Shown: positions 1 to 4,339 of the stretch, piece by piece | Layout: the number at the start of each line of letters is the position of its first letter | How positions within the stretch are numbered: position 1 is the stretch's first letter | Virus record (IMG/VR): IMGVR_UViG_2751185970_000011 | Length of the DNA: 4,339 bases | DNA from: a virus | Taxonomy: Duplodnaviria > Heunggongvirae > Uroviricota > Caudoviricetes | Strand: one strand, 5' to 3' | Program-made: the position numbers and the translations under genes | Notes under the pieces: generated by a model | What the model saw: the letters and a program-made list of their open reading frames with translations, nothing else | Database searches by the model: none | Told to the model about the DNA's origin: nothing

Positions 1-322
1 TTTTCCAGAGGCGGTCGAACTCCGCCTTCGCAAAATAAGCGGAAGCCTGGCGAAGGATATCGTTACTGCGGCGCAGTTCACGATTTTCACGTTCCAGCTC
101 TTTCAGACGCTGACGTTCAGCGGTGGTGAGCCCGCCATCACCGCCTCCGGTATCCCGCTCATGCTGGCGTACCCAGACACGCAGAGTCTCCGGTGTACAG
201 CCAATCTTTGGGGCAATGGAACAAATTGCCGCCCACTGTGAGTCATATTCGCCCTGACTTTCCAGAACCATACGAATCGCCCTCTGACGGACTTCGGGGG
301 AAAAACGAGTATTTTTAGTCAT
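1..322 (-). CDS. IS3-family transposase OrfA (HTH / leucine-zipper N-terminal protein), 3' end truncated by window edge
   Basis: ATG at 322-320 (minus) preceded by AAAGAGG SD. Translation: [107 protein letters not shown]..., open to the window edge (107 codons). This ORF is not in the supplied track because it runs off the window. Confidence 0.85.
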
Positions 323-376
323 CCTGTTTACCTCTTTCTCAGGGAGTTTAGTCTCCAGGATTCCCGGGGCGGTTCA
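1..376 (-). mobile_element. IS3-family insertion sequence (IS629/IS1203-like), partial: left terminal inverted repeat plus 5' part; rest lies beyond window start
   Basis: Minus-strand read from 376 gives TGAACCGCCCCGGGAATCCTGGAGACTAAACTCCCTGAGAAAGAGGTAAACAGG ATG, a TG-initiated terminal repeat then an SD (GAGG) and orfA. The OrfA translation matches what I recall of IS629-group OrfA. Boundary at 376/377 is inferred from the TG end. Target-site duplication cannot be checked because the other end is outside the window. Confidence 0.8.
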
Positions 377-377
377 C

Positions 378-797
378 TGGCGAATAGCGGAATGGCCGGG
401 TGAGGGTGGTGAAGGCCATCTGAGTTCTTTCTTTGTCCAGACAGATAAAGCCAGTATTAATGTTGCATACCATCATACAGTTAATCAACAAAAAGAACTT
501 GGCACGTTTGGCGCATTCGACCATGACTGGCATACGCTTGCATTTAAATTTAAGGGCAGTAACAGCATTAATGTTACTCCGGTGCTTGATGGTGTGGATG
601 GACAGGCGTTTGACCTGGTGAAATGGGCCAATACTGCTAATGGACTCAACAGGTTTGTCATTACGGATATTACAGGTAGTGCAGAAACCTACCCTGTACT
701 TATTGATACGGTGGAAGTTAAAGCAAACAAAGCTGGAGCAGCCGCATAATTGCTAAAAAAAGCCGCCAGCGGCAGGAATGGAAGCTGGCGGAGGTAA
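378..797 (+). pseudogene. 3' remnant of a prophage gene interrupted by the IS insertion (start-less open frame, about 139 codons); identity unverified, position is consistent with the large nanS-p/YjhS-like gene that precedes the lysis genes in many lambdoid prophages
   Basis: Frame 3 is open from the IS junction to TAA at 795-797 with no ATG and no GTG/TTG before 582. Translation: ...ASINVAYHHTVNQQKELGTFGAFDHDWHTLAFKFKGSNSINVTPVLDGVDGQAFDLVKWANTANGLNRFVITDITGSAETYPVLIDTVEVKSKQSWSSRIIAKKAASGRNGSWRR*. It has globular-domain-like composition. The supplied track does not list it. Confidence 0.5.
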
Positions 798-888
798 TCC
801 CAATGGAGAATGTAAAGAAAAGATGCTTTCGTACATTGGTTTTTTAAATGAAAACAATTCTCATTGTCAACCATAACGGTAAGAAATT

Positions 889-1071
889 ATGACATTTATT
901 CATCAGGTGATGCTGTACTTCTGTACGGCGGTCTGTGTGCTGTATCTTCTTTCGGGTGGGTACAGGGCTGTGCGCGATTTCTGGTGCAGGCAGATTGATA
1001 AAAGGGCCGCTGAGAAAATCAGCGCCAGTCAGTCAGCCGGAAGCAAACCCGAAGAACCCGTTACTCCTTAA
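889..1071 (+). CDS. hypothetical small membrane protein (60 aa; N-terminal hydrophobic helix, charged C-terminal tail)
   Basis: ATG at 889 with a weak purine-rich SD (TAAGAAA). MTFIHQVMLYFCTAVCVLYLLSGGYRAVRDFWCRQIDKRAAEKISASQSAGSKPEEPVTP. Stop is 25 nt before the next gene. Same strand as the lysis operon. Confidence 0.4.
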   Translation: MTFIHQVMLYFCTAVCVLYLLSGGYRAVRDFWCRQIDKRAAEKISASQSAGSKPEEPVTP

Positions 1072-1096
1072 CAACCCCTTTCAGCGAGAAAATCCC

Positions 1097-1342
1097 ATGT
1101 CAGAAATCACATCCCTGGTCACTGCAGAGGCAGTGAAGGAAGTCCTGCGCTCTGAAGAAGTCCGGAGCGCACTGAAACAGAAACTTCGCCAGAATCTTGA
1201 GTCGCGTCTTGATGCAGAAGTGGATGCCATTCTGGATGAGCTGCTGGGCGTAGCAGCGGTTCCTGAGCCGGAAGGTATCGCGGGTGACGGGAGTGCTTCA
1301 GATGGCGGTGAACCTACACCTGACAGCGACATGATGATGTAA
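1097..1342 (+). CDS. hypothetical small acidic protein (81 aa)
   Basis: ATG at 1097 preceded by [86 protein letters not shown]: predicted helical N-half and a strongly acidic, probably disordered C-terminal tail. The longer track ORF 935..1342 shares this frame, but its N-terminal extension overlaps the 889..1071 ORF and looks non-protein-like. Confidence 0.55.
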
Positions 1343-1394
1343 GCATGCGCAAGGGACCATCGGTGTGTGCCGGTGGTCTTTATATTGTTGTGAG

Positions 1395-1411
1395 CTTCCG
1401 GATTGCGGGAG
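1395..1411 (+). promoter_or_regulatory. possible RNA hairpin sequestering the holin Shine-Dalgarno (sdi-like translational control element)
   Basis: CUUCCG (1395-1400), loop GAUUG, CGGGAG (1406-1411) can form a 6-bp stem including one G-U pair. The 3' arm contains the GGGAG SD that lies 7 nt upstream of the first holin start codon. Confidence 0.3.
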
Positions 1412-1418
1412 ACGGGGT

Positions 1419-1634
1419 ATGTACCAGATGGAAAAAATCACAACAGGTGTGTCATACACCACGTCAGCGGTGGGAACGGGCTACTGGTTCCTGCAGTTGC
1501 TGGACAGGTTTTCCCCGTCTCAGTGGGCGGCAATAGGCGTGCTGGGGAGTCTGTTGTTTGGGCTGCTGACATATCTGACTAACCTGTATTTCAAAATCAG
1601 AGAGGACCGTCGTAAGGCGGCGCGGGGAGAGTAA
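1419..1634 (+). CDS. S: class II holin, S21-type pinholin (71 aa; dual start Met1/Met4)
   Basis: GGGAG SD 7 nt upstream of ATG 1419; second in-frame ATG at 1428 (MYQM). [71 protein letters not shown]. Two transmembrane segments, the first Gly/Ala/Ser-rich (SAR-like), and a basic C-terminal tail. Near-identical in architecture and C-terminal half to phage 21 S as I recall it. Confidence 0.85.
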
Positions 1635-1638
1635 AGCG

Positions 1639-1983
1639 ATGAAGAAAAAATACGAACTGGTTGTTAAAGGGATAAATAATTACCCGAATAAGATTACTGT
1701 TACTGTGGCACTGGAAATTGGTGGGTATCCGTCACTGTTGTTGCCAGATGTGGCGATTAGTCTTGACCGTACTGAAGATGCCACGCTGGAGTTTTACGAA
1801 GCTGAGGCGAAAAAGCAGGCGAAGCAGTTTTTCATGGATGTTGCTGCCGGGTTATGTGAAGGGGATGGTCCGTTGCCGGAAAAGCGCCCCGTAATTTTAG
1901 AGGCGCAGGATGTGTTGATAACCTACAGAGGAAAACTACCGGGAATAATTACTGGTTCTCTGAAGACTCCACCGCTGGCCTGA
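1639..1983 (+). CDS. DUF1327/YdfR-like prophage protein (114 aa), function unknown
   Basis: ATG at 1639, only 4 nt after the holin stop, with a GGGGAGAG SD. MKKKYELVVKGINNYPNKITVTVALEIGGYPSLLLPDVAISLDRTEDATLEFYEAEAKKQAKQFFMDVAAGLCEGDGPLPEKRPVILEAQDVLITYRGKLPGIITGSLKTPPLA. Soluble-looking. The position between holin and endolysin mirrors the essQ-ydfR-rrrQ order I recall from the E. coli K-12 Qin prophage; the family assignment is from memory. Confidence 0.65.
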   Translation: MKKKYELVVKGINNYPNKITVTVALEIGGYPSLLLPDVAISLDRTEDATLEFYEAEAKKQAKQFFMDVAAGLCEGDGPLPEKRPVILEAQDVLITYRGKLPGIITGSLKTPPLA

Positions 1984-2033
1984 AGACTTAACATATCCAG
2001 GGATTTGAAATCGATAAACCCTGATAAATATCC

Positions 2034-2567
2034 ATGAACACCAAAATCAAATACGGCCTGTCGGCTGCCGTTCTGGCGCTGATTGCCGCAGGTGCGCCTG
2101 CGCCTGAAATCCTCGACCAGTTTCTGGATGAAAAGGAAGGTAACCACACCACGGCATACCGTGATGGCGCGGGTATCTGGACCATCTGCCGCGGTGCCAT
2201 CCTGGTGGATAGTAAACCTGTCGTCCCGGGCATGAAGTTGTCGAAGGAAAAATGCGACCAGGTCAACGCCATTGAGCGTGATAAGGCGCTGGCATGGGTG
2301 GAGCGCAATATTAAAGTGCCGCTGACCGAACCCCAGAAAGCGGGTATCGCGTCATTTTGTCCCTATAACATTGGCCCCGGTAAGTGTTTCCCGTCGACGT
2401 TTTACAGACGGATTAATGCTGGTGACCGCAGGGGAGCATGCGAAGCGATTCGCTGGTGGATTAAGGACGGTGGCAGAGACTGCCGTATCCGCTCAAATAA
2501 TTGCTACGGTCAGGTATCCCGGCGAGACCAGGAAAGTGCGCTGGCGTGCTGGGACATCGACAGATAA
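2034..2567 (+). CDS. R: SAR endolysin (phage lysozyme, T4-lysozyme/GH24-like muramidase), 177 aa
   Basis: MNTKIKYGLSAAVLALIAAGAPAPEILDQFLDEKEGNHTTAYRDGAGIWTICRG... The N-terminal weakly hydrophobic Gly/Ala-rich segment is typical of a signal-anchor-release domain. Catalytic motif E-x8-D-x5-T is present (EGNHTTAYRDGAGIWT). Partner of a pinholin. No obvious SD within 15 nt of the ATG. Confidence 0.9.
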   Translation: MNTKIKYGLSAAVLALIAAGAPAPEILDQFLDEKEGNHTTAYRDGAGIWTICRGAILVDSKPVVPGMKLSKEKCDQVNAIERDKALAWVERNIKVPLTEPQKAGIASFCPYNIGPGKCFPSTFYRRINAGDRRGACEAIRWWIKDGGRDCRIRSNNCYGQVSRRDQESALACWDIDR

Positions 2568-2656
2568 GCAGAATATTTTGCTGAAAATAAGGCATGAGCA
2601 CGCGGACGGATAACACGAAATCCTGCGAACTGGCGAAACGTAAGTGAATAAAAGTA

Positions 2657-2695
2657 AAAACCCCGTTTGTTGGCACCAGGCGGGGTTTTGTGTTT
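2657..2695 (+). terminator. putative rho-independent terminator downstream of the endolysin gene
   Basis: AAAACCCCG (2657-2665), a 15-nt loop, CGGGGTTTT (2681-2689), then a GTGTTT T-rich tail. The GC stem is short and the loop is long, so predicted strength is moderate. Confidence 0.5.
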
Positions 2696-2722
2696 CTGAC
2701 CTTGAGTAAGGCAAGGGAGAAC

Positions 2723-2905
2723 ATGGCGAAGTATAAACGAATTCTGTTGAGGTTGACCATGAAAAACGGCCTTGAACTGAAAGCGCCTGTAACTGATGAC
2801 ATCAGCAGAGCACTGGCTTTTGCCATTAAGTGGGTGGCGGTCGGTGTTGCTGTGTCCCCGATGCTGTATGGGCTGGCAAAACTGGTCATTGCGTTGAAAT
2901 CGTGA
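2723..2905 (+). CDS. hypothetical small membrane protein (60 aa; basic N-terminus, C-terminal transmembrane helix)
   Basis: Purine-rich SD (AAGGCAAGGGAGA) just upstream of ATG 2723. MAKYKRILLRLTMKNGLELKAPVTDDISRALAFAIKWVAVGVAVSPMLYGLAKLVIALKS. Alternative internal start at Met13 (ATG 2759) also has a GAGG SD. Stop is 14 nt before the next gene. Confidence 0.5.
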   Translation: MAKYKRILLRLTMKNGLELKAPVTDDISRALAFAIKWVAVGVAVSPMLYGLAKLVIALKS

Positions 2906-2919
2906 AGGGAGGATTAAGC

Positions 2920-3051
2920 ATGTCAGACAAACTCATAACGCTGGCGAAGATCCTCTGTGTAATTGTCGGCATTTCATTTTCACTAATGCTGGTTGCTCTT
3001 TTTCTTTCCATGGCCTGGATGATGTTGTCTTCGTCGGGGCTGCTGGGGTGA
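2920..3051 (+). CDS. hypothetical small hydrophobic membrane protein (43 aa, single transmembrane helix)
   Basis: Strong SD AAGGGAGG (2905-2912) 7 nt upstream of ATG 2920. MSDKLITLAKILCVIVGISFSLMLVALFLSMAWMMLSSSGLLG. The TGA stop (3049-3051) overlaps the GTG start of Rz (GTGA), which suggests translational coupling. Confidence 0.5.
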   Translation: MSDKLITLAKILCVIVGISFSLMLVALFLSMAWMMLSSSGLLG

Positions 3052-3446
3052 ACATAAACCGAATGCTTTCCGCGTTTACCGTTATTCTGCTGGTGGTCTG
3101 TGGTGCGCTGTGGCTGGCAACAGACCATTACCGTGATAACGCCATCACCTACAAAGCGCAGCGCGATAAAAAAGCCAGAGAGCTGGAGCTGGCAAACGCA
3201 ACCATTACTGACATGCAGCAGCGCCAGCGTGATGTTGCCGCTGGTCGTAAGCGCCTGCGGATCAACGCCACCTGCTCCGGTACCGTGCGTGAAGCCACCG
3301 GCACCTCCGGAATGGATAATGCAACCGGCCCCCGACTGGCAGACACCGCTGAACGGGATTATTTCACCCTCAGAGAGCGGTTGATGACAATGCAGAAGCA
3401 ACTGGAAGGGGCGCAGGAATATATCCGCACTCAGTGTATTAACTAG
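3048..3446 (+). CDS. Rz: Rz i-spanin (inner-membrane spanin subunit), 132 aa from GTG 3048; alternative ATG start at 3063
   Basis: MNINRMLSAFTVILLVVCGALWLATDHYRDNAITYKAQRDKKARELELANATITDMQQRQRDVAAGRKRLRINATCSGTV...RDYFTLRERLMTMQKQLEGAQEYIRTQCIN. N-terminal transmembrane helix, coiled-coil periplasmic domain, conserved Cys residues. Strong similarity to lambda Rz as I recall it (HYRDNAITYKAQRDK..., PRLADTAERDYFTLRERL...). Confidence 0.85.
   Translation: MNINRMLSAFTVILLVVCGALWLATDHYRDNAITYKAQRDKKARELELANATITDMQQRQRDVAAGRKRLRINATCSGTVREATGTSGMDNATGPRLADTAERDYFTLRERLMTMQKQLEGAQEYIRTQCIN
3232..3384 (+). CDS. Rz1: Rz1 o-spanin (outer-membrane lipoprotein) embedded in the +1 frame of Rz; start codon uncertain (ATG 3232, or upstream GTG 3133/3100)
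   Basis: +1-frame ORF inside Rz: ...MLPLVVSACGSTPPAPVPCVKPPAPPEWIMQPAPDWQTPLNGIISPSESG*. Lipobox-like VVSAC, proline-rich mature region and conserved C-terminal motif (WIMQP.PDWQTPLNGIISPSE) match lambda Rz1 as I recall it. From ATG 3232 the signal peptide would be only 8 residues. Confidence 0.55.
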   Translation: MLPLVVSACGSTPPAPVPCVKPPAPPEWIMQPAPDWQTPLNGIISPSESG

Positions 3447-3469
3447 TATTTTTGTTATCCGGAGAATGC

Positions 3470-3694
3470 ATGAAGAAATTACTGGTAACCGTAAAGCCTT
3501 TTCAGGGAACAATTCCGTTCCGTATTTTGCAGCGTGGTCGTGTTCTTGTTGAAGGTTCGTTCAGTGGTAAATGTACGCAATTACACTCCCGGACCTTTCA
3601 GGTGAATGCCACGAATGAAGAGCTAACCGTTGAGTGTACGATGAATGCCGCTAAATGCCGCATGGTATCCGCTGCATTACAGCCAGTGTGTTGA
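3470..3694 (+). CDS. hypothetical protein (74 aa, basic, 4 Cys)
   Basis: GGAGA SD 4 nt upstream of ATG 3470. MKKLLVTVKPFQGTIPFRILQRGRVLVEGSFSGKCTQLHSRTFQVNATNEELTVECTMNAAKCRMVSAALQPVC. No signal peptide or transmembrane segment. Same strand as the lysis genes. Identity unknown. Confidence 0.4.
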   Translation: MKKLLVTVKPFQGTIPFRILQRGRVLVEGSFSGKCTQLHSRTFQVNATNEELTVECTMNAAKCRMVSAALQPVC

Positions 3695-4047
3695 GCGACC
3701 TTATTAACCATGCGCGGTATTGTCGCCGTATCCCCGCATTAACAGAGACCGCAGCCCGACCGGGAGACTCCTCTGCGCGAGTGTGCGGGGATAATCAAAA
3801 ACGATACACACCGGGGTTTACCGCGTTAACGGAGCGCGGCGTTGTCCCCTCATGGTCGCTGGTCCGGTGCGATGGTGGAAGAAACCGGACGATGTGTTAC
3901 CTCGCAAGCTCTGTTATGTCATGTGTCTGATTTGTGATTTAAGTCGGATAATTGTCGTTGCCATTAAGCAGAGGATTGATGACTGAGGTAGCCTGAGTTT
4001 AACGGACACTCCTTCCTGAAATAGAATGGCATCAGAAGGAGCTAATA

Positions 4048-4339
4048 ATGAGCAGAAAAAACCAACGTTACTCTAAAGAGTTCAAAGCCGAAGCTGTCAG
4101 AACGGTTCTTGAAAATCAACTTTCGATCAGTGAAGGCGCTTCCCGATTATCCCTTCCTGAAGGCACTTTAGGACAATGGGTTACCGCCGCCAGAAAAGGG
4201 CTCGGTACTCCTGGTTCCCGCACGGTGGCTGAACTGGAATCTGAAATTCTGCAACTGCGTAAGGCGTTAAATGAAGCTCGCCTTGAGCGAGATATATTAA
4301 AAAAAGCAACAGCGTATTTTGCACAGGAGTCGCTGAAAA
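4048..4339 (+). CDS. IS3-family transposase OrfA (partial, 3' end outside window)
   Basis: Strong SD AGAAGGAG 6 nt upstream of ATG 4048. MSRKNQRYSKEFKAEAVRTVLENQLSISEGASRLSLPEGTLGQWVTAARKGLGTPGSRTVAELESEILQLRKALNEARLERDILKKATAYFAQESLK... HTH then leucine-zipper-like heptads. Matches my recollection of IS600 OrfA. Confidence 0.85.
   Translation, partial: MSRKNQRYSKEFKAEAVRTVLENQLSISEGASRLSLPEGTLGQWVTAARKGLGTPGSRTVAELESEILQLRKALNEARLERDILKKATAYFAQESLK
4299..4306 (+). other. putative programmed -1 ribosomal frameshift slippery site (A AAA AAA G) for OrfAB transposase fusion
   Basis: Run of seven A then G at 4299-4306, in the OrfA zero frame as TTA AAA AAA GCA (L-K-K-A), near the expected end of orfA. 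A6G/A7 motifs are the canonical IS3-family frameshift signals. The downstream stimulatory structure is outside the window. Confidence 0.5.

Follow-up and report, generated by a model that had tools for sequence, protein, structure and literature searches.

The closest described counterparts of the locus studied here are the embedded spanin genes Rz and Rz1 of phage lambda, their full-length relatives in phages and prophages of the Shiga toxin (Stx) phage type, and the rzp/rzo pairs carried by the Escherichia coli K-12 defective prophages DLP12, Rac and Qin. The locus lies on a 4,339-nucleotide (nt) stretch of DNA assigned to the Caudoviricetes (IMG/VR record IMGVR_UViG_2751185970_000011; hereafter the window, meaning the whole stretch), which comprises the late lysis cassette of a lambdoid, Stx-phage-type prophage with an insertion sequence (IS) at each end. 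An earlier note on this DNA had pointed to a shortened Rz (i-spanin) and an embedded Rz1 (o-spanin) lacking a canonical signal peptide. We interpret the pair, at a probability of about 90%, as a spanin-null allele of the lambda/Stx-phage-type embedded Rz/Rz1 pair in a degraded prophage of a Shigella lineage, that is, as ordinary gene decay of a well-known system and not as a new kind of lysis system.

With lambda Rz, the window protein shares the PF03245 family match, an N-terminal transmembrane domain (TMD), the motif HYRDNAITYKAQRD, the region of the second coiled coil (CC2) and a C-terminal Cys; with lambda Rz1 it shares the PF06085 match, the embedding in the +1 frame, the lipobox and the proline-rich mature domain, and in both genomes the pair closes a holin–endolysin cassette. 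The window differs from lambda in lacking the equivalent of Rz residues 64–88 as well as Rz1 codons 1–11 with their Shine-Dalgarno (SD) site, and its Rz is 67% identical to that of lambda and 92–99% identical to E. coli prophage Rz. In lambda Rz the first coiled coil (CC1) comprises residues 27–87, about 62% of the lysis-defective missense changes fall in residues 57–88, and L64–A73 is the most mutation-sensitive stretch, where single substitutions abolish lysis (Cahill et al., PMC5295617). Among Stx phages Rz was present in 277 of the 279 surveyed and is one of their most conserved genes (PMC8136144).

The Stx-type full-length relatives, exemplified by phage Lys8385Vzw (MT225100) and an E. 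coli O157:H16 prophage in NZ_CP062876, are 99.3% identical to the window at the nucleotide level in the regions flanking the gap and share its 43-amino-acid (aa) upstream and 74-aa downstream open reading frames (ORFs) and its class II holin/DUF1327/lysozyme cassette. Unlike the window, they contain a further 75 nt, encode an Rz of 157 aa and an Rz1 precursor of 61 or 56 aa, and have an antirepressor gene between R and Rz, where the window carries a different 340-nt segment with a 60-aa ORF. The K-12 prophages resemble the window in keeping Rz/Rz1-type genes in cryptic lambdoid prophages unable to make virions; the window differs in that one lesion appears to inactivate both subunits together. 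The physiology of the DLP12 lysis module is treated in PMC7918800.

An in-frame deletion within Rz

The Rz ORF (3048–3446, plus strand) encodes 132 aa from a GTG that aligns to the ATG of lambda Rz and is therefore the homologous start; some NCBI annotations begin instead at the ATG at 3063, giving 127 aa. The protein matches PF03245 (Phage_lysis) in two separate stretches (E-value 9.9e-33; 113.5 bits against a cut-off of 25.4), its residues 6–24, MLSAFTVILLVVCGALWLA, read as an uncharged and hydrophobic TMD, and its Cys 130 aligns to lambda C152. Alignment with lambda, phage Lys8385Vzw and the E. coli O157:H16 prophage revealed that a single uninterrupted block of exactly 75 nt (25 codons) is missing, with flanks 99.3–100% identical to full-length E. 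coli alleles. The loss is in frame and falls exactly at RDVAA/GRKRL, the window reading MQQRQR/DVAAGRKRL where the relatives have RDVAALDARYSRELADARAENETLRADVAAGRKRL. Both the 132-aa ORF from GTG 3048 and the position of the in-frame loss had been given in the earlier note and are confirmed here, while its estimate of about 21 residues (63 nt, three heptads) has to be revised: it was made against lambda Rz (153 aa), whereas the true full-length counterpart has 157 aa from the homologous GTG, and 25 codons are not a whole number of heptads. An argument from heptad register (25 not being a multiple of 7) was dropped, as the deletion reaches the end of CC1 and would give a shorter coil with no internal stutter.

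The deleted segment corresponds to lambda Rz residues 64–88 and to 25 of the 61 CC1 residues, in the distal part of the coil, so that the full-length periplasmic domain with both coiled coils (CC1 at 27–87 and CC2 at 121–150 in lambda) is not retained. Since the residues lost make up the most mutation-sensitive part of CC1 (PMC5295617), the window Rz is probably inactive through the loss of this whole block.

Full-length alleles have a copy of the 12-nt direct repeat TGATGTTGC(T/C)GC at either end of the 75-nt block, the two copies being spaced 75 nt apart; in the full-length locus L002 the upstream copy reads TGATGTTGCTGC and the downstream copy TGATGTTGCCGC. The window retains a single copy at the junction (3230–3241, plus strand), TGATGTTGCCGC, with the C of the downstream copy, and because it holds this downstream variant we place the crossover inside the exact 9-mer TGATGTTGC. 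Replication slippage or illegitimate recombination between the 12-nt repeats (9 nt exact) most likely produced the deletion. A second, imperfect direct repeat in Rz, GCTGTGGCTGGCAA and GCTGGAGCTGGCAA (L002 4060–4073 and 4135–4148; about 3107–3120 and 3182–3195 of the window), is likewise spaced 75 nt apart, as are the repeats between which the deletion occurred, and may reflect either an old periodicity of 25 codons in the coiled-coil region or chance.

Loss of the Rz1 start and part of its signal peptide

The deleted block contains the native Rz1 SD site, the ATG and the first 11 codons, which encode the n-region and half of the h-region of the signal peptide. The precursor begins MRELKMKLCVLMLPLVVSAC or MKLCVLMLPLVVSAC in the full-length relatives and MLKLKMMLCVMMLPLVVVGC in lambda, and in all of these the start lies within the segment missing from the window. 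What survives is an ORF in the +1 frame (3100–3384, plus strand) that retains VVSAC and the complete proline-rich mature region; this region matches PF06085 (E-value 6e-19, profile positions 1–40 of 41) and is identical in nucleotide sequence to that of full-length relatives. From the ATG at 3232 the Rz1 remnant (3232–3384, plus strand) would have a leader of only 8 residues, MLPLVVSA, with the lipobox Cys (codon 3256–3258) at position 9. Upstream of the remnant the frame is open from 3100 to 3231, with GTG codons at 3100, 3103 and 3133.

All candidate starts in this frame were scored for the energy of the SD duplex and for the position of the lipobox Cys, which under the PROSITE PS51257-type rule used here as the lipoprotein criterion is expected at about position 15–35. 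The three distant GTG codons gave −4.3 kcal/mol with Cys at position 53 (3100), −5.6 kcal/mol with Cys at 52 (3103) and −1.5 kcal/mol with Cys at 42 (3133); the three nearby codons, GTG 3229, ATG 3232 and TTG 3235, gave 0.3, 0.3 and 0.0 kcal/mol with Cys at 10, 9 and 8, respectively. The controls, each with an ATG, were lambda Rz1 (−8.3 kcal/mol, Cys at 20) and the two E. coli full-length forms, MRELK..., equivalent to MRELKMKLCVLMLPLVVSAC (−5.3 kcal/mol, Cys at 20), and MKLCV... (−3.0 kcal/mol, Cys at 15). The nearby starts thus have no SD site and leaders of 7–9 residues that lack a charged n-region, and the distant starts have long hydrophilic leaders whose uncharged tail averages 0.70 on the Kyte-Doolittle hydropathy scale (controls, about 2.6). 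The PS51257-type rule is passed by lambda Rz1 and by the Rz1 of the full-length relatives but by none of the six candidates.

A six-frame scan of the whole window returned no ORF passing the lipoprotein rule, and therefore no substitute o-spanin or u-spanin; the same scan recovered Rz1, Bor and the TonB_C lipoprotein in control loci. The GTG codons at 3100, 3103 and 3133 are the only conceivable starts besides those near 3232, ORFs beginning at them are absent among the called proteins of a 15-billion-protein collection, and we judge them to be unused. In lambda, changing Rz1 Met1 to Lys is lysis-defective despite the remaining Met6, 7, 11 and 12 (PMC5295617, Table 3). Lambda Met12 is the equivalent of the window ATG at 3232. 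From the start and leader features, no remaining Rz1 start is predicted to yield a usable lipoprotein signal. The account of this frame in the earlier note, comprising the loss of the signal-peptide N-terminus with the deleted stretch, the retained VVSAC and mature region, the 8-residue leader from ATG 3232 and the long hydrophilic extensions from GTG 3133 and 3100, holds throughout, and of the two alternatives it offered, it is the non-functional Rz1 of a spanin-defective prophage that gains support from the deletion of the SD site and ATG and from the failure of every start.

Rarity of the deletion allele and its recurrence on other haplotypes

Of 5,426 complete E. coli genomes, 4,850 contained Rz-like DNA, at a total of 14,054 places, and 643 of the 50,697 phage records searched contained Rz matches; the top E. 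coli and phage matches, among the matches listed, all span 75 nt more than the query. A 42-nt junction probe, each half of which is below the megablast word so that the halves cannot seed separately, had no match in the 5,426 complete E. coli genomes and none in the 50,697 phage records. The possibility that the 132-aa protein is the common, intact form of a phage family is thereby contradicted, and on this distribution the short Rz is not a normal family form. A longer junction query of 91 nt was abandoned, as two-piece and one-piece matches tie and leave deleted and full-length alleles indistinguishable. The exact junction 29-mer had no match among GTDB species representatives, an uninformative result given one genome per species.

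A degenerate junction pattern, CAGCGNGATGTTGCNGCTGGTCG, gave 15 matches in genome contigs, nearly all of them chance matches in unrelated GC-rich genomes. Pattern matches in Pantoea (L042) and in two IMG/VR metagenomic viral contigs (L022 and L026) were rejected as deletion alleles, the Rz there being of full length; because LQR-DVAAGRK natively precedes the second repeat copy in these loci, the pattern does not single out deletion junctions in distant Rz lineages. These divergent Rz genes keep the segment together with a full Rz1 precursor whose start lies inside it. Within IMG/VR, junction carriers amount to only four contigs, 99.7–100% identical to the window allele. Exact copies of the 132-aa protein are listed in 314 assembly blocks (268 contigs) and of the 127-aa protein in 128 (113 contigs), and since the sequence recurs in hundreds of independent assemblies, including finished chromosomes, the deletion is not an artefact.

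Relatives with the same deletion, the existence of which had been left as a question, do occur. The same 25-residue gap is present in Rz homologues P0034 and P0037 (130 aa, from metagenomes) and P0113 (139 aa, from E. coli), whose TMDs are not those of the window and which also show nucleotide differences within 10–30 nt of the junction on either side. At the nucleotide level the 25-codon deletion lies on at least three haplotypes with different flanking single-nucleotide polymorphisms, namely the window, L020 and L021/L045. This pattern suggests that the repeat pair has given rise to the deletion more than once, with recombination as the alternative, and as the deletion is found on at least two Rz haplotypes besides that of the window, these repeats seem to form a minor deletion hotspot. 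Deletion alleles are rare and make up a few clusters of the 7,587 Rz homologues.

Two alleles illustrate different outcomes. Homologue P0108 (129 aa; L044 10001–10390, E. coli GCA_900196605.1) has a different in-frame deletion, of 78 nt at DVAALDAK/RINAT, which takes out the entire signal peptide of Rz1 along with the lipobox; the Q, terminase, capsid, portal and tail genes of its prophage appear to be complete. The allele at L020 2001–2420 (E. coli GCA_034262215.1) has the same 25-codon deletion as the window together with upstream GTG and ATG codons in the Rz1 frame, which yield a leader, MSWSRQMQPLLICSSASVMLPLVVSAC, that passes the lipoprotein rule and may rescue Rz1; the window has GAG and ACG in place of these start codons. 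The large terminase gene of the L020 locus is cut short (335 aa) and lies beside an element with an integrase, a Bro-N gene and a D5-type primase; this element resembles a satellite or an island.

Lysis cassette and Shigella host element

The window opens with the end of an IS3-family element (1–376), with orfA on the minus strand and HTH_Tnp_1 and rve genes at this position in Shigella loci, which forms the left boundary of the cassette and truncates a nanS-p/DUF6645 gene. The genes and ORFs that follow, and the second IS, are all on the plus strand. The C-terminal nanS-p/DUF6645 fragment (about 376–749) and the small DUF1378 and DUF826 genes (889–1342) were identified from the ORF list and the gene tables of Shigella loci. 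The cassette then begins with a class II (phage 21-type) holin of 71 aa (1419–1634; PF04971, E-value 1.8e-32), followed by a DUF1327/YdfR-family gene (1639–1983; PF07041, E-value 2.4e-45) and the endolysin, a lysozyme R of 177 aa with a hydrophobic N-terminus (2034–2567; PF00959, E-value 2.8e-24), and these three ORFs are intact. Between the endolysin and Rz lie a 60-aa ORF with a hydrophobic C-terminus (2723–2905) and a hydrophobic 43-aa ORF (2920–3051) whose stop overlaps the Rz start (GTGA); neither matched a Pfam family, nor did the 74-aa ORF downstream of Rz (3470–3694). The 43-aa ORF is conserved immediately 5' of Rz in relatives, being annotated in L002 and called in all Shigella loci, and the 43-aa and 74-aa ORFs, both conserved, flank Rz in this phage group. 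The region from the endolysin to the 43-aa ORF (2568–2908) is unrelated to the 696-nt antirepressor gene found there in E. coli relatives, and a strong terminator-like hairpin of 13 pairs followed by a T-run lies at 2657–2689. Downstream of the cassette is the end of a second IS3-family element (3984–4339, orfA from 4048), which matches IS copies at other places in L008 and L017 with 100% identity. The two bounding elements differ from each other, and identical copies of each are found elsewhere in the same loci.

The identical Rz protein is recorded as ABB66515.1, 'endopeptidase [Shigella boydii Sb227]', and as 'MULTISPECIES: lysis protein [Shigella]', and positions 1–3983 of the window are 100% identical to several Shigella loci. 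Identity to loci L004–L017 stops at 3983; the IS at 3984 is common to at least one assembly, L011, whose contig ends 22 nt into it, and most other Shigella assemblies run on at 3984 into a TonB_C lipoprotein gene. As the right IS is absent from most of these otherwise identical loci, it is a more recent insertion.

The Shigella element is roughly 14 kb long and is located between potC and potB. In order, it carries an integrase, an IS1, a split DNA methylase, nanS-p cut by an IS3-family element, and the lysis cassette, after which come the TonB_C lipoprotein gene, a DUF3950 gene, an IS66 (often interrupted) and a tail-fibre-assembly scrap of 22–31 aa. The gene tables of L004–L017 contain no Q, replication, head or tail genes on either side of the cassette, and the element thus lacks the features of an inducible lambdoid prophage (Q with pR', replication genes, head and tail genes). 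With this gene content, the element is unable to make phage and lacks a known late-transcription activator, and because Q, replication and virion genes are all missing, the spanin defect is without consequence for phage release.

An identical allele, with zero differences over window positions 2200–3983, occurs in locus L018, where it follows an intact-looking Q, a methylase, three tRNAs (tRNA-Met, tRNA-Arg and tRNA-Arg) and a full-length nanS-p, the contig ending before the structural genes. Since this allele lies behind an intact-looking region, the deletion probably predates part of the decay or was moved by recombination. The layout of L018 3400–6400 (Q, methylase, tRNAs, nanS-p) is typical of Stx phages; L018 has no ORF of at least 70 aa between the tRNAs and nanS-p and showed no sign of stx, which was not searched for specifically.

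Interpretation and alternative explanations

We infer that both spanin subunits are non-functional. A single deletion event, most likely between the 12-nt repeats, stripped 25 codons from Rz, shortening CC1, and the same lesion, read in the +1 frame, removed the ribosome-binding site, start codon, n-region and half of the h-region of Rz1. Rz1 would then be without a proper translation start, and its export, its lipidation and its sorting to the outer membrane would all fail. If the cassette were expressed, lysis would be expected to halt after the holin and endolysin steps. With Q, the replication genes and every virion gene also missing from the Shigella element, the lesion is better regarded as selectively neutral decay than as an adapted variant.

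Several points weigh against this interpretation. The L018 allele shows that the deletion is not confined to obviously dead elements, and the Rz and mature Rz1 frames are both still open, the deletion being too recent for selection to be read from them. The lambda Rz1 Met1-to-Lys result was measured in a codon-changed, disembedded gene, in which the translation context of internal Met codons differs from the native one (PMC5295617), and the verdict on the signal peptide is that of a rule-based proxy for SignalP/LipoP prediction. In addition, the leader from GTG 3133 has a positive n-region, 25 uncharged residues and a good V-S-A-C lipobox, and may permit low-level export. Delivery of Rz1 by such a long, non-canonical leader is unlikely, and it would not rescue Rz.

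A broader reading of the recurrence data would hold that the 12-nt repeat pair is a recurrent hotspot at which both spanins are lost in one in-frame step, that the several haplotypes, possibly in still-inducible prophages, reflect selection for spanin-less modules, and that a new upstream start, as in the MSWSRQMQPLLICSSASVMLPLVVSAC leader of L020, rescues Rz1 in some alleles; we regard this combination as unlikely. That the loss of spanin function is selected and not neutral is less probable again. On this view the repeats would allow both genes to be knocked out in one step, leaving a holin–endolysin module that is less lethal to the host or useful for vesicle or protein release. Such selection would fit the occurrence of the deletion on at least three haplotypes, the separate 78-nt deletion in the apparently intact L044 prophage and the intact holin, DUF1327 and endolysin ORFs of the window, and lysis modules of defective prophages are reported to modulate the production of outer membrane vesicles (PMC7918800). 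A direct-repeat hotspot, however, accounts for the recurrence without selection, the allele is very rare, being absent from all 5,426 complete E. coli genomes, and the Shigella element has undergone wholesale IS-mediated decay and is without a late-gene activator.

We consider it slightly less likely still that the window encodes a shortened spanin pair that works, with Rz1 made from GTG 3133 or 3100 with a long signal peptide, or from ATG 3232, and with the shorter Rz still bridging the periplasm. Both frames being open, the intact V-S-A-C lipobox and the 100% conservation of mature Rz1 are what would be expected of such a pair, as are the K/R residues that precede the 25 uncharged residues of the 3133 leader, and the L020 allele shows that upstream starts acquired alongside the same deletion can provide a leader passing the lipoprotein rule. 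The window, however, lacks the L020 start codons and has no SD site before 3133 (−1.5 kcal/mol) or 3229–3235 (about 0), its Cys would stand at positions 42–53 or 8–10 and not within 15–35, and the h-region available is weakly hydrophobic. The lysis-negative Met1-to-Lys allele of lambda Rz1 and the inclusion of L64–A73 in the deleted segment (PMC5295617) argue against function of either subunit, and late transcription is not expected in Shigella elements without a Q gene. Finally, that the short form is ancestral or normal for the family, the longer alleles having gained 75 nt by insertion or duplication, or that the junction is an assembly artefact, is highly improbable in spite of in-frame length variation in the Rz family (129 to 206 aa among the matches listed), given that the segment, including the Rz1 start, is present in lambda, L022, L026 and Pantoea L042, that the top matches listed span the extra 75 nt and the 42-mer junction is found in neither the E. 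coli nor the phage collection, that the 75 nt are no duplicate of adjoining sequence, and that many independent assemblies, finished chromosomes included, reproduce the junction.

Implications

Interpretation as a spanin-null allele bears on how these genes are annotated. The 50-aa remnant from ATG 3232 is publicly annotated as 'Rz1 family lipoprotein [Shigella flexneri]' on 190 contigs, and a 51-aa version from GTG 3229 also exists; since neither has a usable signal peptide by the features described above, both are probably mis-annotated as intact lipoproteins. The shortened Rz is annotated as 'lysis protein' or 'endopeptidase', and neither Rz nor Rz1 is flagged as defective. For prophage surveys and the mining of lysis genes, ORFs and Pfam matches are insufficient to call a spanin functional.

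IS-driven prophage decay is well known in Shigella genomes, and the biology of this locus is ordinary and of little wider importance. What it illustrates is the fragility of embedded genes, in which one short in-frame deletion can remove an essential domain of one protein together with the start and signal peptide of the protein embedded within it.

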